Part shown: positions 3,358-57,539 of the stretch, one piece after another
How positions within the stretch are numbered: position 1 is the stretch's first letter
Layout: each line of letters begins with the position of its first letter
From: Clostridia bacterium
GTDB taxonomy: Bacteria; Bacillota; Clostridia; UMGS1883; UMGS1540
Reading direction: 5' to 3'
Assembly (NCBI GenBank): GCA_017620205.1
Contig: JAFZQX010000019.1
Coordinates: 18,887-82,886 of the forward strand
DNA: 64,000 bases
Position numbers and translations under genes: made by a program
Notes under the pieces: generated by a model
What the model saw: only the letters and a program-made list of their open reading frames with translations
Told to the model about the DNA's origin: nothing
Databases searched by the model: none

Positions 3358-3373
3358 TAATCTTTAAACCTCA

Positions 3374-4561: not shown

Positions 4562-4762
4562 TTTTCCATAGCCTTTCTAAAAATGATATTTTAATATATA
4601 AAATATACAAAAAATCATTAATTTAGATAACTTTTTATATATTTTACCACAAAAATTAACTATTGTAAATACTTTTTTTAATATTTTTAACAAAAATATG
4701 CTTAATACTCAAATTAAAAACCCAAACAACTATAGTGGCTGCTCCTACCCGGAAACTCCAAT

Positions 4763-7107: not shown

Positions 7108-7114
7108 TATTACT

Positions 7115-9066: not shown

Positions 9067-9083
9067 TTTTTTCCTCCTGTAAA

Positions 9084-10289: not shown

Positions 10290-10319
10290 CTTAAATTCAT
10301 CCTTTCGCTTTGTTCTATA

Positions 10320-10757: not shown

Positions 10758-10850
10758 AGTGTCCGCCCTCCAAAAACAAATGTATTCAACTTAAAGAAAT
10801 ATATCATAAAAACGCTGATTTGTCAAGGGCTTTTGGGGCAAAAAATGAAT

Positions 10851-11675
10851 TTATTTCAGAAAAGTAGTAAGTGTTCCTATGTTCTCTATTTCTATATCAA
10901 CTCTGTCGCCGCTTTTAAGCCAAATCTGTTTATCTTCCGGGTAACCTGCTATTACGCCGGCCGGTGTGCCGGTAAGTATTACGTCTCCGGGCAGAAGAGT
11001 CATATACTGCGCTATATGAGAAACTATTTCAGCACAGGTAAATATCATGTTTTTAGTGTTTGAGTTCTGTCTTAATTCGCCGTTTACCCGGCTTTGGATT
11101 GTGAGGCTTGAAACATCTATACTGTCTTTAGTTACAATAGACGGTCCGAGAGGTGCAAATTTATCAAAGCTTTTTCCCAATATCCACTGTGTTGTTGCCT
11201 TTTGAACTTCACGCACGGACATATCGTTTCCTACCGTGTATCCGAATATGTATTCGTCTGCTGTGTCCTTTGTGATGTTATTGCACTCTTTTCCTATTAC
11301 AACTGTAAGCTCTGCTTCATAGTCATACTTTCCGCCTGCGTATGGAAGTTTAACTTCTTCTTCGTGCGCAGACAGGGCGTTGTTGAATTTTCCGAATACC
11401 GTAGGAACAGTAAGCTTTTGTTCGCGCAGCTCGTCTGCGTGATCTGAATAGTTAAGACCTATGCAAAGAATTTTCTGAGGAAACAGCACTGCGGGAGCGT
11501 ATTTTATTTCGCCAAGTATTTCTTCGCATTTGTCAGGATTTAATTCTTTTTTGATTTGTTCGTAATTTTTGATAACTTCATCTGTAGTAGTTTCAAAAGG
11601 GAGCTTGTGCTTTTTTTGATTTAATTCAAAACCGGCAACGGGTTTGCCTTCTCTGTAATAATTAAATATACGCAT
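10851..11675 (-). CDS. fumarylacetoacetate hydrolase (FAH) family protein
   Basis: 274 aa with FAH-fold motifs (GDVILTGTPAGV). Confidence 0.8.
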   Translation of the reverse strand: MRIFNYYREGKPVAGFELNQKKHKLPFETTTDEVIKNYEQIKKELNPDKCEEILGEIKYAPAVLFPQKILCIGLNYSDHADELREQKLTVPTVFGKFNNALSAHEEEVKLPYAGGKYDYEAELTVVIGKECNNITKDTADEYIFGYTVGNDMSVREVQKATTQWILGKSFDKFAPLGPSIVTKDSIDVSSLTIQSRVNGELRQNSNTKNMIFTCAEIVSHIAQYMTLLPGDVILTGTPAGVIAGYPEDKQIWLKSGDRVDIEIENIGTLTTFLK

Positions 11676-11798
11676 ATTTTGATCTCCGTTTATTATTCTT
11701 CTGAAATATTATATTATAATTTTAAATAAATGTAAAGTTAATAATGCAAAGTTTTGATTGTATAAATTTTTTAAAAACAGAAAAAAATATACACGGAA

Positions 11799-13346
11799 GT
11801 GATTTTGTTGCGTGATTATTTAATAAAGAAGCTAAACGGCGTTTTTTATAAGAGAGACGAGCCCCAAAGTCAATCGCCGCTTTCGGATGAAATAAAAATA
11901 TCCGGATATTTAAATACAAATCTCGAAATTGTTCGTAAGATTACAAAAAACTGTTCCGATGTTATCATACGTGAGTTTTTAATGGGCAATATTCGCGCGG
12001 CAGTAATATATATAGACGGACTTGTAAATACTCTTTCCGTAGATCAAACCGTTATTAAAACTCTTATGTACGGAACGGACGATAATTGTGAGCCATGCTG
12101 TATTGATGAAATAATAAACAAGCTTATTGTTTCGGGAGAAATAAAAAAAGTTAACACTGTAAACGATGGGTTTGAAGGCTTTTTGTCCGGCGACACGTTT
12201 CTGATGGCCGACGGAATAAAGGAAGGATTGATAATCAATACAAAGGGCTTTGAAAAAAGAAGTGTTGACGACCCTCAAACAGATTCTGTAATAAGAGGTT
12301 CAAGAGAAGGGTTCATTGAGAATATACGAACAAATACTGCACTTCTGCGGCGCAGAATAAAAAGCGTATCACTGTGTGTAGAAAATATAAAGATCGGAAG
12401 AGAAACAAAAACCGCTGTAGATATAATCTATCTTGAAAATGTTGCAAACAGTGAGCTGATTTCAGAAATTAAAAGAAGACTTATAAAAATAGACATTGAC
12501 GGTATACTTGACTCCGGATATCTTCAGTATTTTCTTGACGATAATCCAAAGTCTGTTTTTTCTCTTGTTGACAGTACGGAAAAACCGGACATTGCCGCCG
12601 CTAAAATATTGGAGGGAAGGGCGGCGGTTGTTGTTGACGGGTCGCCTTTTGTTTTGACAGCGCCTATGTATTTCGGCGAAAGCTTTCAGTCTCCAGAGGA
12701 TTATTATATTCACTCCGTTGCCGCAACAATGCTCAGAGTAATAAGATACCTATCGTTTTTTGTAAGTATTCTGGCACTTCCTGCATATGTTGCGCTTACA
12801 ACCTTTCATCAGGAGCTTATACCGACGCAGCTTTTATATACAATGGCTGCAGCAGAGTCAGGAACACCGTTTGCAAGCTTTATTGAAGCTTTAATGATGA
12901 CTGTTGTTTTTGAGATACTTAAGGAAGCGGGCGTAAGACTTCCAAAACCGGTAGGGCAGGCCGTAAGCATTGTAGGGGCTCTTGTGATAGGAGAAACCGC
13001 TGTTTCTGCAGGTCTTATTGGTGCACCGATGGTAATAGCTGTATCTATTACTGCCGTGACTGCTTTTGTAACACCGGCGCAGGCAAATACCATTGTGCTG
13101 CTGAGGTATATTCTTTTGGTGCTTTCTGCCGTTCTTGGCGGGTTTGGAATAACTGTAGGCCTTCTTGGAATACTGATCCATCTGATGTCATTAAAATCTT
13201 TCGGAACGCCATACCTTGCACCTCTGGCGCCTTTGCGCATATCAGACCTTAAAGATACGGTATTCTTAGCGCCTGTGCGTGCAAGACTTACACGCCCGCA
13301 CGGGTTGTCACGCAAGAATCCGATTAGACAAAAGCTTTCTGATTAA
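11799..13346 (+). CDS. spore germination protein, GerA family A subunit
   Basis: 515 aa with a soluble N-terminal domain and a C-terminal 5-6 TM domain typical of GerAA/GerKA. Start is GTG/TTG. It is the first gene of an A-C-B operon. Confidence 0.85.
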   Translation: MILLRDYLIKKLNGVFYKRDEPQSQSPLSDEIKISGYLNTNLEIVRKITKNCSDVIIREFLMGNIRAAVIYIDGLVNTLSVDQTVIKTLMYGTDDNCEPCCIDEIINKLIVSGEIKKVNTVNDGFEGFLSGDTFLMADGIKEGLIINTKGFEKRSVDDPQTDSVIRGSREGFIENIRTNTALLRRRIKSVSLCVENIKIGRETKTAVDIIYLENVANSELISEIKRRLIKIDIDGILDSGYLQYFLDDNPKSVFSLVDSTEKPDIAAAKILEGRAAVVVDGSPFVLTAPMYFGESFQSPEDYYIHSVAATMLRVIRYLSFFVSILALPAYVALTTFHQELIPTQLLYTMAAAESGTPFASFIEALMMTVVFEILKEAGVRLPKPVGQAVSIVGALVIGETAVSAGLIGAPMVIAVSITAVTAFVTPAQANTIVLLRYILLVLSAVLGGFGITVGLLGILIHLMSLKSFGTPYLAPLAPLRISDLKDTVFLAPVRARLTRPHGLSRKNPIRQKLSD

Positions 13347-13366
13347 ACTGAAAAGGGATTGTTTGT

Positions 13367-14488
13367 TTGAAATATTTCAGAATTACTGTCAGCCTTATGA
13401 TGATAATGGTGCTCTCCGGATGCTGGAGCAGCAGAGAGCTTGATGAGTTGGCCGTTGTAATGGGAATCGGCATAGATAAAAGCGGAGATCACCTGGAGTG
13501 CTGTACGCAGGTCATTGTGCCGCAAAACGTCGGATCCGGTGAAGAAGGAGGCGCACACGGTGAAAAACCTTATACAAATTTTATTACCGAAGGTAAAGAA
13601 TTATCAACGTGTATAAGTAAAGTGTCCGACACTACCGGAAAGTATGTGTTTATGTCTCATAATCTTATTGCAGTGTTAGATGAAGACGCGGCAAGTGACG
13701 GTATATATAAATATCTTGACTATTTAATGAGAGACAACCAATTAAGGCTCAGCGTATGTCTGTTTGTAACCGATAAAAGCCCGGAAGAAGTGTTTAATGC
13801 CGAAGCTCCGCTTTTTGAAATTCCGTCAATAAATCTTTCAAAAATATCTGAAGGATTTCCGGAAAGCTTATCAGGACAAAATGTTACGGTTTTGGATTTC
13901 ATTAACAACATGATGTGCAAAAAGAAAGGAAGTTTAGTACCTTTTATAACTCTTGTTGACGGTAAAATAAAAGTTTGCGGATCGGCTGTGTTTAACGGTG
14001 ATAAAATGACCGGAAGGCTGGATGAGGAAGATTTAAAAGGCGTTTTGTGGATTATAGGCGATCTGAAAGGCGGAGATATAGTATTAGACATAAACAATAA
14101 TACTTTAAGCTTGCGTATAGGTAGAATCAAGTCAAAAACATTTCCCGTACTTGACAAAAACGGAGAAATTTATATTAAAGCTGAAATCCGCGGTGATTTA
14201 TATTTGGTGAGTGATGACGCAAATATGATAAATACAATAGGAATGGACGCCGTGGTTGAAAAGTTAAACCAATCTGTAGAAAAAGAGATTTTGACATCTT
14301 TGAGTAAAACGAAAAAAATGGGTGTTGATATATATGGGTTCGGAGATATGATTTACAGAAAGAATCCTGCCGTTTGGCGCGCCATAGAAAATACTTGGGA
14401 GAACAGATTTAAAGAAATACGGGTTGATATTTCGGCGGATTTTAGTATCATAGAGACGGGAAGTATTATAGGCAGTGTAAAAAAGTAG
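13367..14488 (+). CDS. germinant receptor C subunit lipoprotein (Ger(x)C family)
   Basis: 373 aa with a signal peptide and lipobox (LSGCWSS). Family and operon position match. Confidence 0.8.
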   Translation: MKYFRITVSLMMIMVLSGCWSSRELDELAVVMGIGIDKSGDHLECCTQVIVPQNVGSGEEGGAHGEKPYTNFITEGKELSTCISKVSDTTGKYVFMSHNLIAVLDEDAASDGIYKYLDYLMRDNQLRLSVCLFVTDKSPEEVFNAEAPLFEIPSINLSKISEGFPESLSGQNVTVLDFINNMMCKKKGSLVPFITLVDGKIKVCGSAVFNGDKMTGRLDEEDLKGVLWIIGDLKGGDIVLDINNNTLSLRIGRIKSKTFPVLDKNGEIYIKAEIRGDLYLVSDDANMINTIGMDAVVEKLNQSVEKEILTSLSKTKKMGVDIYGFGDMIYRKNPAVWRAIENTWENRFKEIRVDISADFSIIETGSIIGSVKK

Positions 14489-14506
14489 CTTATACGGAGT
14501 AATTGT

Positions 14507-15583
14507 ATGGATATCAACAGAAGAAATATGGCATTTACCGTCGCACTGTTTTTAGGCGGTGCAATGCTTTTAACATCATATGTTACGGATATTACATCTT
14601 GGGAAGCGTGGGTACCGGCGCTTCTTGCTTTTTTTCTTTCGTTTGCGGTTGTAAGTATTTATTTAAAGCTAACAAAAAAATATCCGGAAAAACATTTGCC
14701 GGAAATATTTGTTTGTGTTTTTGGAAAATGTGCAGGTTACGCCGTGTCCTGGGCTTATGTTTTTTTCTTTTTGGTCATTGCTTGTTTTAACACGTATTCT
14801 GTCAGCTCTTTCTTTGTTGGTTATGTTATGCCGGAAACCCCGGATATCGTCTTTACGGTAATTTTTGTTTTTATTTGCTCGCGGGCAGTGCGTCTCGGTA
14901 TTGAAAACATAACCAAGATAAGCATTTTCATCTTCTTTTTAATTTCTCTTTTTATTATATTAAATTTTATTCTGCTGCTTTCTCAAATGAAAATCAGTAA
15001 TTTCCTGCCGCTTTTTGACCATAGCTTTTACGAATATTTACAAGCAGCGCATACGGAGCTTATGAATCCTTTTGGTGAAACGGTTGTTTTTTTGATGTTC
15101 GCGGACAAAATCAAGAATAACGATTTTAGAAGTGCACTGATTTGGGGCATTATTATAGGCGGCGTGATGCTTATGCTTGTTGTAATACGCTCTGTTGCAG
15201 TACTTGGCGTTACAATTTCAATTTCGGCAGTTCCGTCTTACGAGGTTTTAAGACTTATTAATATAAAAAATATGATAACGCGTATAGAAACATTGTATTC
15301 ATTTCTGCTTTTGATTCTTGGCTTTTTTAAGGTATCTATCATATACTGCGCAATATCCCGTTTAACAGCGTATCTGACGGGACTTAAAACCGAAAAAAGT
15401 ATTATTAATTCTGTCGGCGCATTTTTAGCTTGTATGACCGCCGTCTCTTTTACTTCCGGGTTTGACAGCGTCAATTGGGGAACAAAGTATGCGGCGTTTT
15501 TTGCCACGCCTTTTGTTTTTATTATTCCGTGCTTTTTGCTTTTGGTTATTACGGTTAAACGAAAAGGGGAGAAAGCTAAATGA
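14507..15583 (+). CDS. germinant receptor B subunit (APC-superfamily permease-like)
   Basis: 358 aa with about 10 TM helices. It is the third gene of the ger operon. Confidence 0.8.
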   Translation: MDINRRNMAFTVALFLGGAMLLTSYVTDITSWEAWVPALLAFFLSFAVVSIYLKLTKKYPEKHLPEIFVCVFGKCAGYAVSWAYVFFFLVIACFNTYSVSSFFVGYVMPETPDIVFTVIFVFICSRAVRLGIENITKISIFIFFLISLFIILNFILLLSQMKISNFLPLFDHSFYEYLQAAHTELMNPFGETVVFLMFADKIKNNDFRSALIWGIIIGGVMLMLVVIRSVAVLGVTISISAVPSYEVLRLINIKNMITRIETLYSFLLLILGFFKVSIIYCAISRLTAYLTGLKTEKSIINSVGAFLACMTAVSFTSGFDSVNWGTKYAAFFATPFVFIIPCFLLLVITVKRKGEKAK

Positions 15584-15783
15584 TTATTACTCTTGCCGCT
15601 TTTTTATATATTTGGCTGTCTGATTTTAAGAATACAAAAGGCAATATAAAAGAGAGAGCTGTGTTTCTGCTTCTTTTCACGCTCTCTCTTGCATTAGCAA
15701 TATTAATCTCTGCGGGAGTTAAAACTATATCTCCCATAAAGGCAATACAAACATTGTTTGATTTTTTGCATATCAGCTATTAA
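15580..15783 (+). CDS. small two-TM membrane protein, possible germinant-receptor D-type accessory subunit
   Basis: 67-aa ORF that overlaps the gerB-type stop by 4 bp and has two hydrophobic helices. Some ger operons in other species carry a small fourth gene. Confidence 0.4.
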   Translation: MIITLAAFLYIWLSDFKNTKGNIKERAVFLLLFTLSLALAILISAGVKTISPIKAIQTLFDFLHISY

Positions 15784-17158
15784 GGAAAATGTCACCTACT
15801 TTGTAGATATCTCCTGCGCCCATGGTTATAATTAAGTCTCCGCTTCCGGCGTTTTCTTTTAAGAATTCTGCGCAAGCTTCAAAAGAGGGAAAGTATTTGC
15901 AGCCGTCAATATCACCGGCAAGCTGTTTTGAGCTTACAATACCTGTGTCTTTTTCTCTTGCTGCGTATATATCAAGCATTAGAATATTTGCACGGGTCGA
16001 GCTGAATGCGTCAATAAACTCGTTGTAAAGACTTTTTGTTCTTGTATAAGTGTGGGGCTGAAAAGCCACCCAAATACTTTTGCAGTCAATCTTTTCTGCG
16101 GTTTTAAGAGTAGCCTTAATTTCGGTTGGATGATGTGCGTAATCGTCTATAACTGTGATGCCGTCTTTTCTACCTTTTGTTTCAAATCTGCGTTTTACGC
16201 CGGTGTACGAAAGCAGACCGTCCTTAATATCTTCAAATGAGATGGCTAAACGTCTTGCTGTTGCTATAGCGCATACGGCGTTTGAAACGTTGTGAATACC
16301 CGGGACAGAAAGACTTATATTTCCGAGTAATTTACCTTTTTCGTATAAATCAAAGGAACCAAATCCCAAATCGTTCAGTTCGATATTTTTAGCACAGTAA
16401 TCAGCGTCAGATTTAACGGAACAGGTAATAAGTTCGCAATTGATATTCCGAACAGCTTTAACCGTATTTTCATTATCAATGTTTGCAACTACCGCGCCGT
16501 CTGACGGAGGCAGAAGAGCCAGCTTGTGAAAAGCGGAGATAATATGGTCTATTCCGCTGAAATAATCAAGATGGTCTTCTTCAACATTTAATATTATGCT
16601 GATATAGGGAAAAAACTTTAAAAAGCTTTCGCAGTATTCACATGCTTCGCAGACAAAGTGATCACTTTGACCTACTCTTATATTGCCGTCTATAGCAGGG
16701 AGTTCACCGCCTATGGAAATAGTTGGGTCAAGCTTCGCTTGAAGCATAATGTGTGACATCATGGATGTAGTAGATGTTTTACCGTGTGTTCCGGAAACCG
16801 CTACTGCGTATTTATATGAGCGCATAACTGCGCCCAAAAGCGTTGCACGGTCGACCATCGGAGCGCCGCTTTTTTTTGCGGCAATAAACTCTTCGTTATC
16901 TTCTTTGATTGCAGCGGTATAAACGATCAAATCACATTCTTTAATGTTAGACGCTTTCTGCCCGATATAGATGGTAGCGCCGAGCGACTTCAGCTTGTCT
17001 GTGAGATTTGACTGCTGCATATCCGATCCGCTGACTTTATATCCGCGTCCCAAAAGTATTTCCGCAAGGCCACTCATGCTTATTCCGCCAATGCCTATGA
17101 AGTGAATATGACCGTTTTTGTTTATGTCATTTATGTTGAAATTGTTCAAAAAAAACAC
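15773..17158 (-). CDS. murC: UDP-N-acetylmuramate--L-alanine ligase
   Basis: 461 aa with HFIGIGGISMSGLA and Mur ligase motifs. Confidence 0.9.
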   Translation of the reverse strand: MFFLNNFNINDINKNGHIHFIGIGGISMSGLAEILLGRGYKVSGSDMQQSNLTDKLKSLGATIYIGQKASNIKECDLIVYTAAIKEDNEEFIAAKKSGAPMVDRATLLGAVMRSYKYAVAVSGTHGKTSTTSMMSHIMLQAKLDPTISIGGELPAIDGNIRVGQSDHFVCEACEYCESFLKFFPYISIILNVEEDHLDYFSGIDHIISAFHKLALLPPSDGAVVANIDNENTVKAVRNINCELITCSVKSDADYCAKNIELNDLGFGSFDLYEKGKLLGNISLSVPGIHNVSNAVCAIATARRLAISFEDIKDGLLSYTGVKRRFETKGRKDGITVIDDYAHHPTEIKATLKTAEKIDCKSIWVAFQPHTYTRTKSLYNEFIDAFSSTRANILMLDIYAAREKDTGIVSSKQLAGDIDGCKYFPSFEACAEFLKENAGSGDLIITMGAGDIYKVGDIFLNS

Positions 17159-45981: not shown

Positions 45982-47208
45982 ATGAAAAAGATCGTTGCTT
46001 TTATTTTAGCACTTTTTGTTTTCCTTAATTGTTCTTGTGTTTCTGCTGTTTACAGCATAAATGATTTTGCCACAAGAGCAAACGCTCTGGGAATTTTGAT
46101 TGACACAGCAGACATCCAGGCGGATTTGAGCGTTTTGGACAAATTTTCTGACGCCGACAGGATATCGGATAAAGAAAAGAATATATTCGCTTATTGCGTG
46201 GGTCAGGGCCTTCTGAAAGGTTATCCCGACGGAACTTTGCAGCCTTACGGAGAGATAACAAGGGGAGAATATGCCGTTATTATTGAAAGACTTTTAAAAG
46301 ACACAATGACACCCAAAACGGTTTTTGATTTTGACATAAAATATGATGACGGCGAGCCGTGGTGCGAGAGCGCGCTGAATTTCTGCTCGGCAAACCTTTT
46401 AATGCTTGGCTATGGCAATGACTTCGGAATAAACGATAATCTTACAGACGGCCAACTTAATATAATAAAAAAACGTTTTGGTTTAAAACCGAGCTGCAAT
46501 GATATCTGCACAGCGCTCATATTAAACAACTTGGACGAACTTGACTATGATGCTGTTATGTGGTCGGGATACGATGAAATACTAAAATTTACCGATGCGG
46601 ATATTCCTAAGCAGAGCTATGAATCCAAAGTAGAGTGGGCGAATTTAGGGGAGAATTTCAACATGTATGATTATTTCTTTGAAAGCTTACCTGCCGATTT
46701 TAAATACTATTGTGCTTTAAATACGCAGTTTAATACTGCTTTTGATTTTGAAAAGTATACGGGAAATGATGCCGCCATACTTCGCCTTTCTTCAAGAAAG
46801 TCTTTTTTAGAATGTCACAGCACGGCTTTCGGAGTAAATACGCCTTTGTTTGATGAAGGTGGAGAATCGTTATCTGAAAAAGATAGATATGTTTCTGAAA
46901 TTACAGATAAAATCAGAAATGGAGTAAAAGTTAAAGCGTTTTTTGTACCGTCTACATATAATTATTTTCGTTATGACCAACATTTTCCCGGCATCGGAAC
47001 AAAAAATGTAAAGAACGCAAAAGGTTATGAATATTTTAAATATATCTCGGGCGCACCCGAGGGTATGGAAAACGGAAAATGGTACAGAAGGGTGGTAAAA
47101 ACTTCTTTATCAAACGGTGAAACGTATAATACCAGATACACCGCAAGTTTTGATGTGAAATACGAAGAGGAGGAACCCGTCCCCGAATGTTTATTGAAAA
47201 AAGAATAA
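45982..47208 (+). CDS. secreted protein with N-terminal SLH (S-layer homology) domain
   Basis: Signal peptide present. The SLH consensus is matched by GLLKGYPDGTLQPYGEITRGEYAVII. The C-terminal 300 aa have unknown function. Confidence 0.65.
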   Translation: MKKIVAFILALFVFLNCSCVSAVYSINDFATRANALGILIDTADIQADLSVLDKFSDADRISDKEKNIFAYCVGQGLLKGYPDGTLQPYGEITRGEYAVIIERLLKDTMTPKTVFDFDIKYDDGEPWCESALNFCSANLLMLGYGNDFGINDNLTDGQLNIIKKRFGLKPSCNDICTALILNNLDELDYDAVMWSGYDEILKFTDADIPKQSYESKVEWANLGENFNMYDYFFESLPADFKYYCALNTQFNTAFDFEKYTGNDAAILRLSSRKSFLECHSTAFGVNTPLFDEGGESLSEKDRYVSEITDKIRNGVKVKAFFVPSTYNYFRYDQHFPGIGTKNVKNAKGYEYFKYISGAPEGMENGKWYRRVVKTSLSNGETYNTRYTASFDVKYEEEEPVPECLLKKE

Positions 47209-47219
47209 ACACACACTTT

Positions 47220-47246
47220 CGGAGCAAGGAAACTTGCTCCTTTTTT
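47220..47246 (+). terminator. rho-independent terminator after SLH gene
   Basis: GGAGCAAG-gaaa-CTTGCTCC hairpin followed by a T6 run. Confidence 0.75.
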
Positions 47247-47249
47247 CTA

Positions 47250-47278
47250 TTGACAAATCTTAAAATAAGTATTATAAT
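47250..47278 (+). promoter_or_regulatory. sigma-A promoter (TTGACA-17-TATAAT) of lexA operon
   Basis: Perfect consensus hexamers. An imperfect Cheo-like dyad (GGGACAAATGTACC, 47286-47299) lies immediately downstream of the -10. Confidence 0.55.
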
Positions 47279-47325
47279 CATAAGTGGGACAAATGTACCA
47301 CTTAGGAATCGAAGGGTGTGTTTTT

Positions 47326-47922
47326 ATGCGAACTAAAAATCCGGAATACTTTGAAAAGATTTTAAACTGCATAGATAAATACAAAGAGGAGGCGGGCGCG
47401 TGTCCGACTGTGCGTGAGATAGCAGAAAAAACGGGTATTACAAAAACAACCGTTTCGCGTTATATTATGGATATGCGCGAGAGAAATATTATAGATTACA
47501 GCGGGCACAGGAATATAACAACCAAAAGAGACAGGGGCGAAACGGTAAAAGTGCCTCTGCTCGGTGCCGTATCGTGCGGCGTTCCGAAATACGCCGAGGA
47601 AAACATTGAGGAATATATAAAGCTTCCCGTGTCTCTTTTCGGCAAGGGAGAATATTTTCTTTTAAGGGCAAACGGGGATTCTATGATTGACGCCGGTATA
47701 GACGACGGTGATTTGGTTCTCCTGCGCGCGCAGAATACTGCGGAGACAGGGCAAATAGTTTCCGCGCTTATAGACGATGAAGCAACGCTTAAAAGGTTTT
47801 ATCCCGAACCGCAAAAGGGAAGAATAAAACTTCATCCCGAAAACAGCGCTCTTGAAGATATATATACGGACAAATGCGCAATACAGGGCGTTGCAGTTAA
47901 AGTTATAAAGGACTTGGTGTAA
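47326..47922 (+). CDS. lexA: LexA repressor (S24 peptidase)
   Basis: N-terminal winged HTH and C-terminal S24 domain with Ser (GDSM) and Lys (TLKRF). The sequence is close to Bacillus LexA across the cleavage and catalytic region. The start is chosen at the ATG after a GAAGGGTG RBS. Confidence 0.85.
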   Translation: MRTKNPEYFEKILNCIDKYKEEAGACPTVREIAEKTGITKTTVSRYIMDMRERNIIDYSGHRNITTKRDRGETVKVPLLGAVSCGVPKYAEENIEEYIKLPVSLFGKGEYFLLRANGDSMIDAGIDDGDLVLLRAQNTAETGQIVSALIDDEATLKRFYPEPQKGRIKLHPENSALEDIYTDKCAIQGVAVKVIKDLV

Positions 47923-47926
47923 AGAT

Positions 47927-48211
47927 ATGAAAAGCGAATATATAAGAGTGCCGCTTGAGGTCTATGTGCTTTGTGAGAGCGACGGCTCTTTCAGCCCCAA
48001 AAAACTTTTATATCACGATAAATCTTTCGAAATCACAAAAACGCTCTCTGTGCGCCCGAAATGCCCTAAAGAGGTCGGATGTATAGCGCCGCTTGAATAT
48101 ACCGTTTTAATAGACAATGAAGAGCGCAAAATCTACTACGAGCACGAAACGAATACATGGTTTTCCGTAAAGGAGATAAAAAATGAAGGAGCGAGCAATT
48201 CTGCACAGTGA
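47927..48211 (+). CDS. hypothetical small protein between lexA and Y-family polymerase (position analogous to YolD-like accessory proteins)
   Basis: 94-aa ORF, tightly packed and overlapping the polymerase start by 29 nt. No recognisable motif. Confidence 0.45.
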   Translation: MKSEYIRVPLEVYVLCESDGSFSPKKLLYHDKSFEITKTLSVRPKCPKEVGCIAPLEYTVLIDNEERKIYYEHETNTWFSVKEIKNEGASNSAQ

Positions 48212-49415
48212 CGCGAACAGCTTTTACGCGTCCGTTGAAACGGTTTTAAACCCCGCGCTTCGCGGGAAGGCTTTAGCTGTCTGCGGAAACAGGGAAGACA
48301 GGCACGGCATTGTGCTTGCAAAAAGCGAAAAAGCGAAAGCGGCGGGCGTTAAAACGGGAATGACCATATGGGAGGCGGAAAAGCTGTGCCCGGATCTTTT
48401 GGTGGCGCCGCCGCAGTATGAATATTATTTAAAGTTTTCAAAGCTTTTGTTCCAAATATACAGCCGCCATACAGACCTTATAGAGCCTTTTGGCATGGAC
48501 GAGTGCTGGCTTGACGTTACAAATTCGGCAAGGCCGCCTATGGAGACAGCGGAAGATATACGGTGTGCCGTTCGCGACGAACTCGGCATAACGGTAAGCA
48601 TAGGCGTATCGTTTAATAAAGTTTTTGCAAAGCTTGGCAGCGACATGAAAAAGCCCGATGCGATAACGGAAATAACAAGAGAAAATTTTAAAGAAAAGGT
48701 ATGGCCTCTGCCGTGCTCCGACCTTATCTATTGCGGCAGGGCTACTACGGCGCACCTAAAAAAACTTAATGTTAAAACAATAGGCGACATTGCCGCGTAT
48801 CCGCAGGAGTATTTAAAAAAGAAGCTTGGAAAAAGCGGAGCTATGCTTTGGGACTTTGCAAACGGACTTGATACATCAAGAGTTTCGCACATGGATTATA
48901 AAGTTCCGGCAAAATCTCTCGGTCACGGAATAACGTGCGTATCGGATATTGAAAATACGGAAGATGCGGAAAAGGTTATATACGCGCTTTCACAGGATAT
49001 AGGCTATAAACTGCGGCTTATGGAGCTTAAAGCTTGCGGTGTGCATCTTTTTGTCAGAGACAACAAGCTTTTGACGGTAGGCTGGCAGGCACCGCTTGAA
49101 GTACCGAGTTCGGATGAGAGTATCATAGCAGAAAAAGCGTTTGAAATTTTAAAGGAAAACTATACATGGGAAAAGCCCATACGCGCACTGACTGTTACAT
49201 CCATAGGGCTTGTAACCAAGAGCTTTCCGGAGCAGATAAATGTGTTTTTTGATAATGAAAAATCCGATAAAAGAGAACGTCTTTGCAAAAGCATAGACAG
49301 CATTAAAGAGAAATTTGGCAAAAAAACAATATTTCCGGCGGTAGTGCTGAATGAGAGTAAAATGCCGTCCCATGCGGGAAAAGAGATCATTATGCCAAAC
49401 CAAATGTACCGTTGA
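48183..49415 (+). CDS. Y-family translesion DNA polymerase (DinB/UmuC-like)
   Basis: N-terminal ILHSDANSFYASVE (matches the Y-family catalytic motif of DinB/UmuC polymerases), palm/finger motifs and a little-finger domain. An AAGGAG RBS precedes it. Confidence 0.85.
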   Translation: MKERAILHSDANSFYASVETVLNPALRGKALAVCGNREDRHGIVLAKSEKAKAAGVKTGMTIWEAEKLCPDLLVAPPQYEYYLKFSKLLFQIYSRHTDLIEPFGMDECWLDVTNSARPPMETAEDIRCAVRDELGITVSIGVSFNKVFAKLGSDMKKPDAITEITRENFKEKVWPLPCSDLIYCGRATTAHLKKLNVKTIGDIAAYPQEYLKKKLGKSGAMLWDFANGLDTSRVSHMDYKVPAKSLGHGITCVSDIENTEDAEKVIYALSQDIGYKLRLMELKACGVHLFVRDNKLLTVGWQAPLEVPSSDESIIAEKAFEILKENYTWEKPIRALTVTSIGLVTKSFPEQINVFFDNEKSDKRERLCKSIDSIKEKFGKKTIFPAVVLNESKMPSHAGKEIIMPNQMYR

Positions 49416-49456
49416 CAAGCTTAAAAACATATGTTATTCTTGAAATAAGAGGTGAT

Positions 49457-50494
49457 ATGATGCCGTTTAATATTATACGTGACGATATAACAAGACTTGA
49501 TATGGACGCCATAGTAAACGCCGCAAACAGCAGGCTGGCGTATGGCGGCGGCGTTTGCGGTGCGATATTTTCGGCTGCGGGCGCAGCTGAACTCCAGGCG
49601 GAGTGCGATAAAATAGGATATTGCGAAACGGGCGGTGCGGTTATTACAAATGGTTATAATCTTAAAGCAAAATATATAATACACACCGTAGGACCTATAT
49701 ACGGCGAAAACCCAAAAGAAGAGGAGAAACAGCTTTATTCATGCTACAAAAACTCGTTGGAGCTTGCAGCCGGGCATAAGCTTGAATCTATCGCTTTTCC
49801 GCTGATTTCGTCAGGCATATACGGTTATCCGAAAGCAGAAGCATTAAAAATAGCTACAAAAGCAATTAAAGATTTTCTTGCGGAAAATGATATGGACGTG
49901 TATCTTGTTGTTTATGACAAGGCCTCGTTTCATATAAGCGAAAAGCTTTTTGACAGCGTAAAAAGCTATATTGACGATAAATTGATAAAGCCGGACAGCA
50001 GGCGGTGCTTGTGCGATGAAGGGGTTTCTGTGCCGTTGCCGTGTTTGGCAGACAAAGAATATGATTACATACCCGAAGGCTCAACGTTACAAGGCGCACC
50101 TTCTGCTAAAATACAGTTTGAGAAAAAAGAATCACTTGACGCTCTTTTAAATAAAAAAACGGAAACGTTTTCGGAAATGCTTCTGCGTCTTATAGACGAG
50201 AGAGGAATGTCGGATGTTGAGGTTTACAAAAGAGCAAACATAGACAGAAAGCTTTTTTCGAAGATGAGAAAAAAAGACTATATGCCGAAAAAAACTACAG
50301 TTATGGCGCTTGTGATTTCGCTGAAGCTTGGCAAAAAAGAAGCTGAAATGCTTTTAAACCGTGCGGGTTTTGCCTTTTCCGAAAGCAGCAAGTTCGATAT
50401 TATAATAGAATATTTTATAGAAAACGGAATATATGATATATATGAAATAAACGAAGCGCTGTTTGCGTTTGAAGAAAAGCTTTTGGGCGCATAG
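49457..50494 (+). CDS. macro-domain protein (ADP-ribose/O-acetyl-ADP-ribose hydrolase-like) fused to C-terminal XRE-type HTH-like domain
   Basis: N-terminal macro motifs (DAIVNAANSRLAYGGGVCGAIF, HTVGP, AFPLISSGIYGYP). The C-terminal ~120 aa resemble an HTH_3 domain (FSEMLLRLIDERGMSDVEVYKRANIDRKLFSKM). Confidence 0.7.
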   Translation: MMPFNIIRDDITRLDMDAIVNAANSRLAYGGGVCGAIFSAAGAAELQAECDKIGYCETGGAVITNGYNLKAKYIIHTVGPIYGENPKEEEKQLYSCYKNSLELAAGHKLESIAFPLISSGIYGYPKAEALKIATKAIKDFLAENDMDVYLVVYDKASFHISEKLFDSVKSYIDDKLIKPDSRRCLCDEGVSVPLPCLADKEYDYIPEGSTLQGAPSAKIQFEKKESLDALLNKKTETFSEMLLRLIDERGMSDVEVYKRANIDRKLFSKMRKKDYMPKKTTVMALVISLKLGKKEAEMLLNRAGFAFSESSKFDIIIEYFIENGIYDIYEINEALFAFEEKLLGA

Positions 50495-50506
50495 GGGAGG
50501 GATAAT

Positions 50507-50935
50507 ATGATATATACGGATATGACTAAGAAGGCACTAAAACTGTCGTTTGAAGCACATAAGGATCAATTTGATAAAAGCGGGATGCCGTATGTTTATC
50601 ACCCTTTTCATCTCGCTGAGCAAATGAAAGATGAAAATACAACAATTGTTGCGCTCCTGCATGATGTTGCAGAGGATACCGGCATTACAATAGATAACAT
50701 CAGAGACATGGGGTTTTGCGAAGAAGTATGCGCCGCACTAAGTCTTATGACACATGACGATAATACTCCGTATATGGAATACGTAAGCAAATTAAAGAGC
50801 AATCCAATAGCAAAAGCCGTAAAGTTAGCTGATTTAAAGCACAACAGCGACTTGGCAAGACTGGACATAGTTGACGAAAAGGCCTTAAAAAGAGTAGAAA
50901 AATATAAAGCCGCTATGGAAGAACTTTTAAAATAA
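50507..50935 (+). CDS. small alarmone hydrolase (SAH; stand-alone SpoT/Mesh1-like HD domain)
   Basis: 142 aa with H..H...HD metal motif (YHPFHLAE, ALLHDVAEDT) as in RelA/SpoT hydrolase domains. It has no synthetase or TGS/ACT domains. Confidence 0.65.
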   Translation: MIYTDMTKKALKLSFEAHKDQFDKSGMPYVYHPFHLAEQMKDENTTIVALLHDVAEDTGITIDNIRDMGFCEEVCAALSLMTHDDNTPYMEYVSKLKSNPIAKAVKLADLKHNSDLARLDIVDEKALKRVEKYKAAMEELLK

Positions 50936-50958
50936 AATTTGTCGCTTTAAAAGCGACC

Positions 50959-51008
50959 ATACCTCCTTTAATTGATGATAGACTTAGGTCATCAAATGAA
51001 GGAGGTAT
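50959..51008 (+). promoter_or_regulatory. 20-bp hairpin sequestering the Shine-Dalgarno of the vWA gene
   Basis: ATACCTCCTT...TGATGA-loop-TCATCA...AAGGAGGTAT forms a near-perfect 20-bp stem with one mismatch. The 3' arm is the AAGGAGG RBS, 8 nt upstream of ATG 51014. Confidence 0.5.
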
Positions 51009-51013
51009 TTATT

Positions 51014-51661
51014 ATGAACAAAAACTTAACAGAGGTAGTATTTATTCTTGACAGAAGCGGATCAATGTCAAATCTTGAGGAGGATACAATTGGCGGCTAC
51101 AACAGCTTGCTCGAAAAGCAGCAAAAAGAAGAGGGTGAAGCGGTAATCACAACGGTGCTTTTTGATGACAAATACGATATGCTTCATGACCATGCAGATG
51201 TTAAAAAGGTAAAACAGATAACCTCAAAGGAGTACTTCGCAAGAGGGATGACGGCATTGCTTGACGCTGTGGGAAAAACAATAAACCATGTAGGAAAAAG
51301 ACACAAATACGCGCCGGACAACGAAATTCCCGCGAGAACGTTGGTGGTAATTATTACAGACGGGTTTGAAAATGCCAGCAGAGAGTTTTCTCAGCCGCAA
51401 ATCAAATCAATGATAGAGCATCAAAAAGAAAAATATGGATGGGAGTTTTTGTTTTTAGGCGCTAATATTGATGCTGTTGAAACGGCCAATACATACGGAA
51501 TCTGCGCAGACAGGGCTGTAACATATGAGGCGGACGAATTGGGAACAAGAATGAATTTTGATGTTGTAAGCAGAACGGTATCGGCGGTAAGAATGGCACA
51601 GCCGCTTGGCGCAGACTGGAAAGAGGATATAGAAAAACGTTTTAAAAAGAAGATAAGATAA
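51014..51661 (+). CDS. stand-alone cytoplasmic von Willebrand factor A (vWA) domain protein
   Basis: MIDAS motif DRSGSMS, T (GMTAL) and D (ITDGFEN) residues. No signal peptide. The start is chosen at ATG 51014; the ORF is open from 50972. Confidence 0.75.
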   Translation: MNKNLTEVVFILDRSGSMSNLEEDTIGGYNSLLEKQQKEEGEAVITTVLFDDKYDMLHDHADVKKVKQITSKEYFARGMTALLDAVGKTINHVGKRHKYAPDNEIPARTLVVIITDGFENASREFSQPQIKSMIEHQKEKYGWEFLFLGANIDAVETANTYGICADRAVTYEADELGTRMNFDVVSRTVSAVRMAQPLGADWKEDIEKRFKKKIR

Positions 51662-51666
51662 TAATA

Positions 51667-51697
51667 AAAAAGGCGCATCTTTTGATGCGCTTTTTTG
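51667..51697 (+). terminator. rho-independent terminator after vWA gene
   Basis: GGCGCATC-tttt-GATGCGCC hairpin followed by a T6 run. Confidence 0.8.
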
Positions 51698-51793
51698 TAT
51701 GTAAAATTACATGTTTTTATTACAATTTTACATGTACGAAAATCAGGAAATTTTGTATAATTAAACTATAGAAATAAATTGGGAGGAAAATGT

Positions 51794-55370: not shown

Positions 55371-57539
55371 ATGAAAAAAATAATCAGCATAATAATCTCG
55401 GCAGCTTTTTTATTAACGGCAATTGTAACAATTGCAGGAATCTGCGGAAAGACAAACTGCGGATATGTTGTTGAGACAATTCATGGCGGAAGAATCTATA
55501 CGGGCAACGCTCTTGAGGATCTCAAGGAACAGGGAGTTATTGAAGGTTATGATGACGGACAGCTGCACCCCGAGCTTATTCTTACAAGAGCGCAGTTCGC
55601 AAAAATCATGACAAAAGCGTTTCCCGACGGTATAAATGAAGGTCTCATGTTTCATTTTACCGATTTAAGCGAAGACCATTGGGCTTACGGATACATACAA
55701 AAAGCAGTTGACGCCGGCTGGATAAAAGGCTTTCCTGATAAAACCGTCCGTCCGGATGACGACATCACATTTGAGCAGGCAACAGCAGTTGTTTGCAGAG
55801 TTATTGGAATTGCAAGCGAATATGACGACTATCCCGAAGATTATATATCAGCTGCAATAGACTATTCGATAACAGACGGTGTAAACTCGGTAATAGGTGA
55901 GAGCATAAGCAGAGACGACGCAGCTAAGATAATAATAAATGCTCAAAATTATTTGTCGATCATGGAAAACGAAGAAACCTTAGAAAATGCCATGTATTCC
56001 GGCAGCAAAGGCTATGGCATGACTCCTGTACCGGCGCCTTCTGTAAACGGAGTGGCGTCAAAATCGAATAGTAATAATATGCCTTTAGAAGAAGGACTTG
56101 CGGCTGATACAGAATATTACTATGAAACAGTTGAACCTGTTTTCCCCGGATACTTTAATACCGAGGAATATAATGCTCAGACTGAAAATATCTTTAAAGA
56201 CGCGGCAACATCTCCGCTTTCAACTTTTTCTATTGACGCAGACACAGCTTCATACAGCAATATGCGCCGATTCATCTTAAACGGACAGAGAATACCCGAA
56301 GGCTCAATAAGAAGCGAAGAACTTATAAACTACTTTGATTATACAAAAGCGGAAACAGAAGACGGAAAGCCATTCGGTGTAAATTACACTGTTTCAAAAT
56401 GCCCTTGGAACGACAATAATATGCTCGCTATGATTACGGTTTCGGGCGAAGAACTTACAGTTCAGAAACCTTCAAATATTGTATTTCTCATTGATACATC
56501 CGGCTCAATGTACGATTTTAACAAGCTTCCTCTTGTTAAAATGTCACTTTCAATGCTTTTAGACAAGCTTGGAGATGAAGACACTGTTTCAATAGTAACA
56601 TACGCGTCCGGCACGGGCGTTGCTTTAGAGCCGACAAGGGTTTCGGAAAAAGAAAAAATACTTAACGTTATGAACGGTCTTTATGCTTCGGGCGGCACAT
56701 ACGGCGAAGGCGGTATTCAGCTCGCTTACCAGCAGGCGGAAAAGTTTAAAATTGACGGAAACAACAGAATCATTCTTTGCACAGACGGCGACTTTAACAT
56801 TGGTCAATCATCAGAGGCGGAGCTTGACAAGCTGATTTCCGAACATCGCGAAAAAGGTATTTTCTTAAGCGTTTTGGGCTTTGGAATGGGAAATTACAAA
56901 GACAACAAGATGGAAACGCTTGCAGACAAAGGAAACGGAAACTATGCTTACATAGATAATCTCCGCGAAGCTAAAAAAGTTCTTGTTGACGATATGTCAA
57001 AGACTATTTATACAATAGCAAAGGACGTTAAAATTCAGACTGAATTTAACCCTGCAACAGTTTCAAAATACCGCCTTATAGGTTACGAAAACAGACAATT
57101 AAACAACGAGGATTTTGACAATGATAAAAAAGACGCGGGAGAGCTTGGCGCCGGCGCAACCGTAACTGTTTTATATGAGCTCGTTCCCGCATCGGGAGAA
57201 ACTCAGCAGCAGCTCAAATATCAGACAACCGAGACAACAGGGAGCAGCGATCTTATGACGGTTAAAATCCGTTATAAAGAGCCCGAAGGCAGCGAAAGTA
57301 TACTTTCAGAATACCCGGTAAACGCCTTGGTTACAGAGCCTACAGGAGACTTTAAATTTGCTTCGGCTGTTGCAGAACTCGGCATGATACTTAATGATTC
57401 TGAGTTTAAAGGAAATGCAACACTTGATTCTGTTATAGAACTTGCCAGAGAAGGCGTGGGCGAGGACGCTTTCGGACTTCGCGCCGAGTTTATTCAGCTT
57501 GCCGATCTTTTAAGATACAGAGATACAATAAATCGCTAA
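55371..57539 (+). CDS. cell-surface protein: 2 N-terminal SLH domains + YfbK-like module (DUF3520-like + vWA domain)
   Basis: Signal peptide present. The SLH consensus is matched twice (GVIEGYDDGQLHPELILTRAQFAKI; GWIKGFPDKTVRPDDDITFEQATAV). A FSIDADTASYSNMRRF...EELINYFDY DUF3520-like region follows. The vWA MIDAS motif is DTSGSM. Confidence 0.75.
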   Translation: MKKIISIIISAAFLLTAIVTIAGICGKTNCGYVVETIHGGRIYTGNALEDLKEQGVIEGYDDGQLHPELILTRAQFAKIMTKAFPDGINEGLMFHFTDLSEDHWAYGYIQKAVDAGWIKGFPDKTVRPDDDITFEQATAVVCRVIGIASEYDDYPEDYISAAIDYSITDGVNSVIGESISRDDAAKIIINAQNYLSIMENEETLENAMYSGSKGYGMTPVPAPSVNGVASKSNSNNMPLEEGLAADTEYYYETVEPVFPGYFNTEEYNAQTENIFKDAATSPLSTFSIDADTASYSNMRRFILNGQRIPEGSIRSEELINYFDYTKAETEDGKPFGVNYTVSKCPWNDNNMLAMITVSGEELTVQKPSNIVFLIDTSGSMYDFNKLPLVKMSLSMLLDKLGDEDTVSIVTYASGTGVALEPTRVSEKEKILNVMNGLYASGGTYGEGGIQLAYQQAEKFKIDGNNRIILCTDGDFNIGQSSEAELDKLISEHREKGIFLSVLGFGMGNYKDNKMETLADKGNGNYAYIDNLREAKKVLVDDMSKTIYTIAKDVKIQTEFNPATVSKYRLIGYENRQLNNEDFDNDKKDAGELGAGATVTVLYELVPASGETQQQLKYQTTETTGSSDLMTVKIRYKEPEGSESILSEYPVNALVTEPTGDFKFASAVAELGMILNDSEFKGNATLDSVIELAREGVGEDAFGLRAEFIQLADLLRYRDTINR

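Follow-up and report, generated by a model that had tools for sequence, protein, structure and literature searches.

Six genes follow one another on the + strand between positions 47326 and 51661 of the 64,000 nt stretch of Clostridia bacterium DNA analysed here (contig JAFZQX010000019.1 of assembly GCA_017620205.1; termed the window throughout), and the question they raise is whether they constitute one functional module or two. In order, they encode a LexA-type repressor, a small protein (orf94), a Y-family DNA polymerase (polY), a macro domain protein with a predicted C-terminal helix–turn–helix (HTH) domain, a small alarmone hydrolase (SAH) and a von Willebrand factor A (vWA) protein. The initial annotation viewed the run as an SOS-linked module for the erasure of nucleotide signals, and its account of the locus itself is accurate, in that all six open reading frames (ORFs) are present in the ORF list and co-directional, with intergenic gaps of +4, −29, +41 to +44, +12 and +78 bp, and Pfam and NCBIfam matches agree with every gene and domain identity. 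Much else in that interpretation also stands, namely the lack of a cognate toxin, a hairpin over the vWA ribosome site and the eraser theme; the conserved, SOS-linked module does not. Instead, it is probable that the run is a lineage-specific, side-by-side placing of two independent units, a lexA cassette (47250–49415) and a macro-HTH/vWA module (49412–51690), with the latter subject to the form of regulation proposed here.

The two units come apart in a sister genome, L088, whose orf94 is 84 % identical to that of the window. Its gene order reads Dabb–SLH–lexA–orf94–polY–Cu_amine_oxidN1–beta-helix–SLH/vWA, and its flanks correspond exactly to those of the window, with 55 bp in place of the 2.36 kb that harbour macro, SAH and vWA; none of the macro, SAH and vWA module is present. 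With regard to wider conservation, a scan of one genome per species using the macro protein as query returned relatives in at least 557 species, of which 80 loci were kept and surveyed for neighbours by tblastn with all six window proteins as queries. The vWA gene is found directly downstream of the macro-HTH gene in 55 of these 80 loci and 0.4–6 kb away in a further 17, with one contig too short to tell. Clustering of the neighbouring ORFs leaves macro and vWA alone as conserved partners, since the next cluster, of 12 loci, is an unrelated ABC ATPase. Neither lexA nor orf94 of the window type lies beside the macro gene in any of the 80 other species, and SAH is present in two to three of them. 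A general link to the SOS regulon was similarly rejected: the canonical Gram-positive LexA (Cheo) box, GAAC-N4-GTTC, is absent at the lexA promoter (47200–47330) and unenriched upstream of the macro gene, with one weak match across 78 species against approximately three expected by chance. The macro-HTH and vWA genes are, by these comparisons, a conserved unit that is widespread in Bacillota, of which the window would carry an inserted copy. The features of this unit, and the terminator that closes it, are as follows.

49412–49440, + strand: promoter-like site for macro and SAH, TTGACA-17-TGtTATTCT, in overlap with the stop codon of polY; 10 of 12 positions match, and TG is present
49460–50494, + strand: macro-HTH protein, with a MacroD-type macro domain (1–175), a disordered linker (183–220) and a predicted C-terminal Cro/C1-type HTH plus two helices (226–336), from Pfam and AlphaFold
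50507–50935, + strand: Aph1-family SAH, predicted (p)ppApp hydrolase, 142 aa, HD_4/SpoT-like (PDB 7SMG)
50941–50957, unstranded: 17 bp palindrome GTCGCTTTAAAAGCGAC, a candidate operator for macro-HTH, which precedes vWA in the window and in 70 of 72 related loci
50959–51008, + strand: predicted hairpin sequestering the Shine–Dalgarno (SD) sequence, from folding; 5′ anti-SD arm at 50959–50970, upstream of the predicted start; 3′ arm with GGAGG at 51001–51005
50976–50984, + strand: extended −10 element TGaTAGACT of the vWA promoter, separated from the palindrome by a constant 18 nt, the TAnnnT box itself being 21 nt downstream
50990–50997, + strand: predicted transcription start region CATCAAAT, with A50991 taken as +1 (C50 in 51/71 and A51 in 61/71 loci), 7 nt past the −10 box
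51014–51661, + strand: cytoplasmic stand-alone vWA protein with a complete metal ion-dependent adhesion site (MIDAS) motif, 215 aa (AlphaFold, PHROG)
51673–51690, unstranded: strong, bidirectional intrinsic terminator closing the run, GGCGCATC-TTTT-GATGCGCC and then a T-run

As such, the macro and vWA genes each possess a promoter-like site of their own. The macro-HTH protein most likely begins at 49457 or 49460 (MMPFNIIR) and ends at 50494; the TTG at 49412 is not considered its start, because homologues begin MPFNIIR. Its N-terminal domain is a clear macro domain (Pfam Macro, E 2e-42), for which MACROD1/2 and YmdB are the top matches both by structure and by sequence, with identities of about 44–46 % (approximately 46 % to human MACROD2 and 44 % to E. 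coli YmdB). The loops that bind ADP-ribose, NAAN, GGG and G-[IV]-[YF]-G (G-I-Y-G), are conserved and form invariant columns in the homologues, and the catalytic Asp and His of MacroD (GGGVDGAIH) are replaced by Cys and Phe (GGGVCGAIF), with C33 and F37 invariant in 40 sequences. The AlphaFold model has a predicted local distance difference test (pLDDT) score of 81, rising to about 90 in the C-terminal domain, which comprises seven helices in a 5+2 arrangement. Homologues P0328 and P0256 reach 23.3 bits for the Cro/C1-type model HTH_26 (Pfam threshold 22), and the stretch ANIDRKLFSK-RKK, the most conserved of the whole protein, is invariant and falls on the helix predicted to mediate recognition. 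An exhaustive HMMER search with this domain yielded 6540 cluster representatives; among the best 150 it is located at, or a few residues from, the C-terminus in all but one, and a macro domain forms the N-terminal part of 14 of the 20 proteins sampled, the remainder being mostly fragments. Searching PDB sequences with the C-terminal domain returned nothing useful.

The candidate operator of this protein is the palindrome GTCGC-N7-GCGAC, which is always 17 nt in length and usually located 72–80 nt before the vWA ATG. In an ungapped alignment on the palindrome, GTCG is conserved in 71/71 loci and GCGAC in about 71/71, and T0 and C18 are near-invariant too. There is one copy per locus of approximately 20 kb, it is found only where vWA is present, and it stays with vWA even when that gene is kilobases from the macro gene. 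Two loci extend this pattern: in L004 the palindrome lies ahead of the macro gene as well, at the same distance from TATAGT, and in L137 it also precedes an ADP-ribosylglycohydrolase (ARH) gene, giving the order macro, operator–ARH and operator–vWA. It is absent from the vWA homologues of actinophages, which have no macro-HTH gene nearby. Given this distribution, the palindrome is read as the putative operator of the macro-HTH protein, and the correspondence between an invariant predicted recognition helix and invariant operator half-sites argues for that protein as its binder. A scan of viral contigs with the operator pattern produced 120 listed matches, of which 19 have the architecture in full, 15 of them ahead of a vWA gene; the remaining matches were dismissed as mostly chance. 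One locus, L140 (− strand, operator at 3107 reverse-complement), has a full operator and TGTTATAAT promoter before a 142 aa protein without a Pfam match rather than before vWA, and this protein could be a further member of the regulon.

Downstream of the palindrome, 18 unconserved nucleotides are followed by T36 and G37 (45–48/71) and by T39, A40 and T44 (69/71 each). From this pattern, the vWA promoter is predicted to be of the extended −10 type, with a CA start and no −35 hexamer, and a start site at A50991 would place the centre of the palindrome at −42. Several other readings of the region were considered and set aside. As a −35 hexamer, GCGACC has the GAC of TTGACA, but a 20 nt spacer would separate it from the −10 box, and it was rejected. 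Neither a MerR-like promoter nor a single-stranded DNA promoter (Frpo-like) fits, as the palindrome lies outside the spacer and the −10 element is found in a loop in one locus group and in a stem in the other; the −10 consensus, occupying a hairpin loop in one group and a stem in another, is therefore taken as a DNA-level signal. A longer helix for the first hairpin was likewise rejected, since palindrome positions 6 and 12 form a Watson–Crick pair in only 36 of 71 loci, indicating no selection for an extended RNA helix. In a search of Rfam 15 with E values of up to 10, the vWA leader (50936–51013) matched no family.

The hairpin over the vWA ribosome site, as noted in the initial annotation, is robust: RNA from 50936 to 51022 folds with a minimum free energy of −35 kcal/mol (z = −8.4), and none of 200 shuffled sequences folds as well. 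By comparison, the window transcript from 50991 folds at only −2.3 kcal/mol. The same difference is observed across the 71 loci, with full leaders at −17 to −38 kcal/mol and transcripts from the predicted +1 at about 0 to −4 kcal/mol. In 61 of them, at least 80 % of the SD is paired to sequence that precedes the predicted start, and this anti-SD pairing occurs in two registers, at positions 22–27 or at positions 41–46, the latter overlapping the −10 box. Because the vWA ribosome site pairs with an anti-SD sequence upstream of the predicted start, read-through mRNA is expected to be translationally silent.

Taken together, these features suggest a mechanism in which the macro-HTH protein would act as a one-component, ADP-ribose-linked regulator, with a dimer binding the 17 bp palindrome at −42 and controlling vWA transcription, and with the macro domain coupling this switch to an ADP-ribose-containing ligand or substrate. 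The spatial arrangement matches that of lambda cI at PRM, and for that reason activation of vWA is favoured by analogy, with repression as the alternative. Only mRNA from the promoter of vWA itself would be translated, as RNA reading through from macro–SAH or from the SOS operon would be masked. SOS transcription running from lexA to the terminator at 51690 would thus leave vWA untranslated unless its own promoter fires.

A number of observations weigh against this mechanism, or against the separation of the two units. In seven of the 80 species, the macro gene lacks a vWA gene within 10 kb. The HTH_26 match of the window protein itself reaches only E 0.05, and the binder of the palindrome could be another, unseen factor. 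On read-through mRNA the palindrome folds into an RNA hairpin as well, and a role at the RNA level is possible because its rare variants, GTCGT and GTGAC, keep G–U pairing. As the −10 box doubles as an anti-SD arm in TGTTATCCT loci, part of its conservation could reflect RNA pairing, and the shuffle control for SD pairing is high, at 0.55 versus 0.89 observed. With the MacroD catalytic Asp and His replaced, the domain may be an enzyme or a sensor only. In this organism, SOS-driven read-through from polY into macro–SAH is probable, because there is no terminator between polY and the macro gene. Finally, what binds the palindrome, where transcription begins, which ligand is sensed, whether vWA is activated or repressed and what the vWA protein does are all deduced from sequence.

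The product of the putative target gene has a weak Pfam VWA match and a confident AlphaFold model (pLDDT 90), which displays a vWA/integrin I-domain fold with two extra C-terminal helices and has Foldseek matches to TRAP and integrin I domains (E about 1e-8). The MIDAS residues DxSxS...T...D (D13, S15, S17, T80 and D116) are invariant in homologues, and a PDB sequence search with the vWA profile gave nothing useful. In PHROG it belongs with phrog_7371 (E 5e-62), with homologues of 36–47 % identity in 217 phage records, among them Streptomyces, Microbacterium and Pseudomonas phages, XacN1 and Mx1. As a guess, the protein may bind, in a MIDAS-dependent manner, to some target protein or to a modified macromolecule. 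Lytic actinophages commonly carry stand-alone homologues (e.g. L092, Streptomyces phage NootNoot, 70726–71337; L093, Microbacterium phage Merry), which are annotated as hypothetical and are located close either to ssb or to the terminase/HNH and tRNA region. A second, unrelated vWA protein is encoded 3.7 kb downstream in the window (55371–57539). This is a 722 aa protein of the cell-surface type with SLH, vWF_A, VWA and YfbK_C domains, which is also present on the sister contig L088 and lies outside the macro/vWA module.

Between the macro gene and the operator of the window lies the SAH gene, whose product shows full-length similarity to Aph1, a (p)ppApp hydrolase (PDB 7SMG; E 1.4e-25; residues 6–138 to 7–139, ungapped). 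The specificity residues of Aph1 are D24, R96, D116, R119, K133 and Y134 (PMC10083569); aligned to 7SMG, the corresponding residues are D23, K95 (an R to K change), D115, R118, K132 and Y133, with five of the six identical. The protein is predicted to be an Aph1-type (p)ppApp hydrolase. Aph1-like hydrolases accompany the pair in four arrangements, of which the window order, macro–SAH–operator–vWA, is one. In L008 the order is macro–SAH–PARG/ARH fusion–HTH/AAA_28–membrane protein–operator–vWA, in a complete gut phage it is macro-HTH/orf151/operator/vWA/Aph1-like HD (this HD protein being 37 % identical to the SAH of the window), and in L004 the SAH is located 2 kb upstream, among TIR, SIR2, GNAT and LOG genes. 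Other occupants of the macro-to-operator slot are an ArsC-like protein (nine loci) and a 100 aa protein (four loci), and an ARH gene follows vWA in 12 of 33 viral-collection loci and 2 of 80 genomes. SAH is a recurrent, optional passenger between the macro gene and the operator, outside the conserved core.

The suggestion that macro and SAH share a nucleotide-signal eraser theme is borne out by these ARH, PARG–ARH, TIR, SIR2 and LOG neighbours and by the four arrangements of the Aph1-like hydrolase, and so has real comparative support, centred on ADP-ribose rather than on SOS. The parallel drawn with DarG holds less well, as the macro domain is present but of the MacroD type: there is no TARG1-like macro domain, no DarT or ADP-ribosyltransferase (ART) in the window run and no PADLOC match. 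The earlier statement that no cognate toxin is visible holds; PADLOC 2.0, which covers anti-phage defence, returned no match for macro-HTH, SAH, vWA, orf94 or polY.

Some of the passenger regions are unusual in their own right. In L008 (1878–4981), a 698 aa fusion of a microbial-type PARG catalytic domain with an ARH, followed by an HTH_3+AAA_28 (NadR-like) protein, is found between macro–SAH and operator plus vWA. The L004 island with macro-HTH/vWA (650–17077) contains a C11 peptidase, two TIR_2 proteins, SIR2, GNAT, an Aph1-like HD protein and LOG/LDcluster4, as well as DUF4234–SHOCT, a Lactamase_B/anti-Pycsar-like+Ada protein and an MmeI-type restriction–modification enzyme, and looks like a defence island rich in NAD+/ADP-ribose genes. 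The ArsC/Spx-like protein, of glutaredoxin fold, takes the SAH slot at L066:11037–11393 and in eight other loci from Oscillospirales and Acutalibacteraceae.

Mobile DNA is a further setting for the module. The macro-HTH gene occurs on 32 IMG/VR contigs, many of which have the module just upstream of MobC and the MobA relaxase. One backbone type consists of ImmA/IrrE-type peptidases, an XRE repressor, macro-HTH, variable cargo, a 502 aa Y-family polymerase, a YolD-like protein, operator plus vWA, MobC/NikA and the MobA relaxase, and is that of an integrative conjugative or mobilisable element, not of a phage. A complete gut phage, PV036457, carries the arrangement described above beside methyltransferase and helicase genes. 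A Y-family polymerase and YolD-like protein lie between or beside macro-HTH and vWA in approximately 16 of 33 mobile-element-like contigs, as well as in genomes L018, L058 and L076, in at least three gene orders and with a polymerase clade that differs from that of the window. The mobile-element polymerases are 66–100 % identical to each other, and 23–25 % identical to the polymerase of the window, and because of this high mutual identity the associations represent few independent events. In the genome set a polymerase adjoins the pair in 3 of 80 loci, marginally above a rough chance expectation of about one. There is accordingly a weak but genuine hint that translesion polymerases and the macro-HTH/vWA module are co-selected on mobile DNA. 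Given the recurrence of polymerase and YolD beside the pair, there may be a looser link to damage tolerance, as opposed to a LexA-controlled six-gene operon.

The first unit is more familiar. Its features, and the left limit of the run, are as follows.

47221–47240, + strand: terminator-like hairpin at the end of the upstream SLH gene, left limit of the run (8 bp stem, five G–C pairs, then a T-run)
47250–47278, + strand: promoter of the lexA cassette, a perfect TTGACA-17-TATAAT (12 of 12 consensus matches), conserved in L088, L089 and L090
47285–47300, unstranded: candidate LexA-type operator TGGGACAAATGTACCA, a 5-N4-5 palindrome with GGAC in place of GAAC, directly after the −10 box, a position kept across four related loci
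47326–47922, + strand: LexA-type repressor, predicted to be autoproteolytic, 198 aa (TIGR00498, PF00717)
47927–48211, + strand: orf94, small protein with a 29 nt overlap with polY, in the slot of the ImuB-C/YolD small subunit of known cassettes
48183–49415, + strand: Y-family (DinB/YqjH-like) translesion DNA polymerase, 410 aa (IMS, IMS_C, HhH)

LexA scores 143.1 bits against TIGR00498 (curated equivalog cutoff 110.95), matches the S24 peptidase family PF00717 (E 2e-29) and aligns end to end with the T. maritima and E. coli LexA structures (3K2Z and 1JHH). By sequence reading, it possesses a Ser/Lys dyad (the GDSM serine and LKRF lysine) and a Cys–Gly cleavage site, as in UmuD, rather than Ala–Gly. 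A palindrome of the type TGGGAC-N4-GTCCCA after the lexA promoter is kept in L088, L089 and L090, and is a single copy in the window; it shares the geometry of the LexA box but differs from it in sequence, and may be the LexA box of this lineage or that of a cassette-specific LexA paralogue. The polymerase has matches to IMS (E 3e-41), IMS_C and HhH, its best NCBIfam models are DNA polymerase IV PRK03103 and PRK01810, and its catalytic D..DE motifs are present by reading (SDANSFYASVE and GMDECWLDVT), as in an active polymerase.

Concerning orf94, no Pfam or NCBIfam match was obtained even at E 10, nor any in PHROG or PADLOC, and since a word-based search turned up only seven close homologues it is not assignable to a family. 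It is positioned between an S24 repressor and a Y-family polymerase in L088, L089 and L090, the three-gene cassette of L090 having a genomic context other than that of the window. In L091 a truncated LexA-like ORF and then a 60 aa extra ORF precede the orf94 homologue, such that the repressor there is deduced from a partial ORF. Weak homologues (25–30 % identity over 80 aa; L119:2053–2430 (−), L076:6017–6277 (−), L096 and L107) adjoin ImmA/IrrE-type M78 peptidase genes in the regulatory region of conjugative-element-like contigs, on which basis orf94 may belong to a wider family of small proteins linked to damage-response regulators.

Operons of the form lexA–imuB-C–polY have been reported, with ImuB-C coupled to YqjH-like polymerases ‘mostly from Clostridia’, as have cassettes of YolD and Y-family polymerases, including a Geobacter sulfurreducens operon, Clostridia YqjH-like subgroups and B. 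subtilis yqjX–yqjW and yolD–uvrX (PMC6511836). By position and size, orf94 fits the ImuB-C/YolD small subunit. This unit is a predicted SOS mutagenesis cassette of known kind, putatively autoregulated through a variant LexA box; in all other respects it is ordinary, and that variant box, for an uncultured Clostridia lineage, is its sole addition to what is known.

The limits of the run agree with the initial description, in that no terminator-like site is found on the + strand from 47326 to 51661 and a strong one follows vWA at 51673–51690. The surroundings are chromosomal housekeeping genes, including a tRNA cluster, RodA/FtsW, alanyl-tRNA synthetase and oxaloacetate decarboxylase. What had been called a tRNA-Lys scar is simply the last gene of an ordinary five-tRNA cluster, 2 kb upstream of the run. 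As an integration site this tRNA gene was discounted, there being no integrase nearby and the sister genome keeping the intervening Dabb and SLH genes without the trio. No integrase or repeat bounding the macro–SAH–vWA insertion was found in the window. Between the terminator and the Cu_amine_oxidN1 gene (51697–51745) are two imperfect copies of AAAATTACATGT/AATTTTACATGT within AT-rich sequence, with weak Rfam matches only (ctRNA_pND324, 28 bits versus a gathering score of 45).

How, then, do other explanations of the locus fare? One is that the six genes form a single LexA-controlled operon, which couples DNA damage to the removal of ADP-ribose and alarmone signals, either for protection from effectors that ADP-ribosylate or make alarmones, or as damage signalling. 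It draws on the co-directional order, tight spacing and lack of internal terminators, on the physical plausibility of read-through from the strong lexA promoter into macro–SAH, and on the recurrence of Y-polymerase and YolD with the pair on about half of the mobile-type contigs and in L018, L058 and L076. The near relationship of those mobile polymerases reduces the recurrence to few independent events, however, and the sister genome retains cassette and flanks without the trio, lexA and orf94 never adjoin macro in the 80 other species, and the 78 upstream regions show no excess of LexA boxes, with the variant box confined to the lexA promoter. Moreover, macro has its own TTGACA-17-TGtTATTCT promoter, and vWA has a conserved promoter of its own and a ribosome site that is masked on read-through RNA. 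A single operon is accordingly quite improbable. An RNA switch, in which the GUCGC...GCGAC hairpin and the SD hairpin form a cis leader on a macro-to-vWA transcript, is similarly improbable. Here a ligand or RNA-binding protein, possibly the macro C-terminal domain, would bind the first hairpin and open the ribosome site. Two adjoining hairpins do occur in 71 loci, the second being kept by compensatory changes in two registers; the variants of the first keep G–U pairs on the + strand only, the window leader has the z-score given above and, with no Rfam 15 match, this would be a new RNA motif. Yet hairpin 1 shows no covariation, as the core does not vary and no more than half of the loci can pair positions 6 and 12. 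The TAnnnT and TG elements keep a rigid 18 nt offset although one group of loci has them in the loop of hairpin 2 and the other in its stem, which fits a DNA promoter better than an RNA motif. The whole cassette is also maintained where vWA is kilobases away or on the other strand, and the same cassette precedes the macro and ARH genes, which have different downstream leaders.

More credible, though still rather unlikely, is that macro-HTH, vWA, Aph1, ARH and Y-polymerase/YolD are mobile counter-defence or establishment cargo, directed at NAD+/ADP-ribose and (p)ppApp immunity or toxins at entry, of which the window copy would be a domesticated or stranded insertion; this is compatible with the regulatory mechanism proposed here. 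The module of gut phage PV036457, the 32 IMG/VR contigs (many near MobC/MobA, with ImmA/IrrE-type and XRE regulators), vWA homologues in 217 phage records, the indel relative to L088 and the location of L004 among TIR, SIR2 and MmeI restriction–modification genes all speak for it. Against this, most of the 80 loci have ordinary, variable chromosomal neighbours and no integrases, no PADLOC match was obtained, the window insertion shows neither integrase nor repeat, and a tightly repressed, insulated vWA is unusual for a factor needed at once on entry. Control of vWA at two levels, operator and ribosome-site masking, within a two-gene unit of patchy, mobile distribution might also suggest a toxin–antitoxin-like pair, with a harmful vWA and the macro-HTH protein as repressor or antidote, in the manner of DarG and DarT. 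This is very improbable: type II systems do not typically show this order, with the regulator first and a promoter between the genes, or these sizes, the 215 aa vWA protein has no recognisable toxic domain and stands alone in many lytic phages, and the macro domain is of the MacroD rather than the DarG/TARG1 type, with no DarT/ART partner.

If the preferred reading of two units, with a macro-HTH regulator of vWA, is correct, its interest lies in the second unit. A full-text literature search found no description of the macro-HTH/vWA pair, for which the sole database labels are ‘macro domain-containing protein’ and ‘VWA domain-containing protein’. Its carriers include hundreds of Bacillota species from the gut and the environment, as well as a phage and conjugative elements. 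It offers a testable regulatory model in the form of an invariant 17 bp operator, a promoter of fixed geometry and a fold-back block on read-through mRNA. Were the macro domain a sensor, it would provide bacteria with an ADP-ribose-responsive transcription switch besides NrtR, and a first function for the large family of stand-alone cytoplasmic and phage vWA proteins. The boldest form of the idea, which we advance tentatively and regard as possible yet doubtful, is that macro-HTH is the first bacterial transcription factor with a macro domain as its sensor, reading an ADP-ribose-derived signal and firing a read-through-proof vWA promoter, as a widespread switch for NAD+/ADP-ribose conflict in Bacillota. 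The signal might then be a macromolecule that carries ADP-ribose, a product of TIR or SIR2, ADPr-1″-phosphate, or ADP-ribose in free or O-acetyl form. If so, this switch would cover immunity, toxin exposure and possibly DNA-damage tolerance, and would be shared by chromosomes, gut phage and conjugative elements, with individual lineages adding erasers such as Aph1, ARH and PARG.

Comparisons with known systems place each part of the locus. At OR2/PRM, lambda cI employs a Cro/C1-type HTH and a 17 bp operator near −42 at a promoter with a weak −35 element or none. In IS10 ‘fold-back inhibition’, the ribosome site of externally initiated transposase mRNA pairs with upstream sequence. By analogy, vWA would share with the former a Cro/C1-type HTH, a 17 bp operator near −42 and a promoter without a −35 element, and with the latter a ribosome site masked only in transcripts from outside its own promoter. 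For both, the likeness is one of mechanism only, with no homology claimed.

At the protein level, the window macro domain resembles the MacroD hydrolases (human MACROD1/2, E. coli YmdB and Oceanobacillus MacroD) in fold, in identity of approximately 44–46 % and in its NAAN...GGG loop and G-I-Y-G motif, and differs from them in its GGGVCGAIF catalytic loop and in the added linker and HTH domain. With DarTG it shares a macro domain protein in a small, mobile two-gene unit, whereas here the macro domain is MacroD-type rather than TARG1/DarG-type, DarT/ART is absent and the partner is a vWA protein. The SAH has the length, full-length similarity, HD motif and five of six specificity residues of Aph1 (7SMG; PMC10083569), and departs from it in lacking an adjoining MuF/Apk toxin and in having Lys for R96. 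As in lexA–imuB-C–polY and YolD cassettes, the first unit begins with a LexA-type repressor, translationally couples an accessory protein of approximately 90 aa to a Y-family polymerase and has a palindrome over its own promoter; it is set apart by an orf94 that matches neither ImuB-C nor YolD models, a GGAC-N4-GTCC-like operator and a Cys–Gly cleavage site.

The nearest concept for the second unit is provided by the Nudix–HTH (NrtR) and WYL–HTH one-component regulators, which sense ADP-ribose (PMC9503650). As in these regulators, a domain predicted to bind nucleotides or ADP-ribose is joined to an HTH, with its gene adjoining the putative targets, and the apparent regulon here, comprising the macro gene, ARH and vWA, is ADP-ribose-related. 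In contrast, the predicted sensor is of the MacroD type, the predicted HTH is C-terminal and of the Cro/C1 type, and control would be directed mainly at a vWA gene rather than at NAD metabolism. Whilst the lexA cassette is already known, macro-HTH, operator and vWA would represent a newly described form of the one-component-regulator theme.

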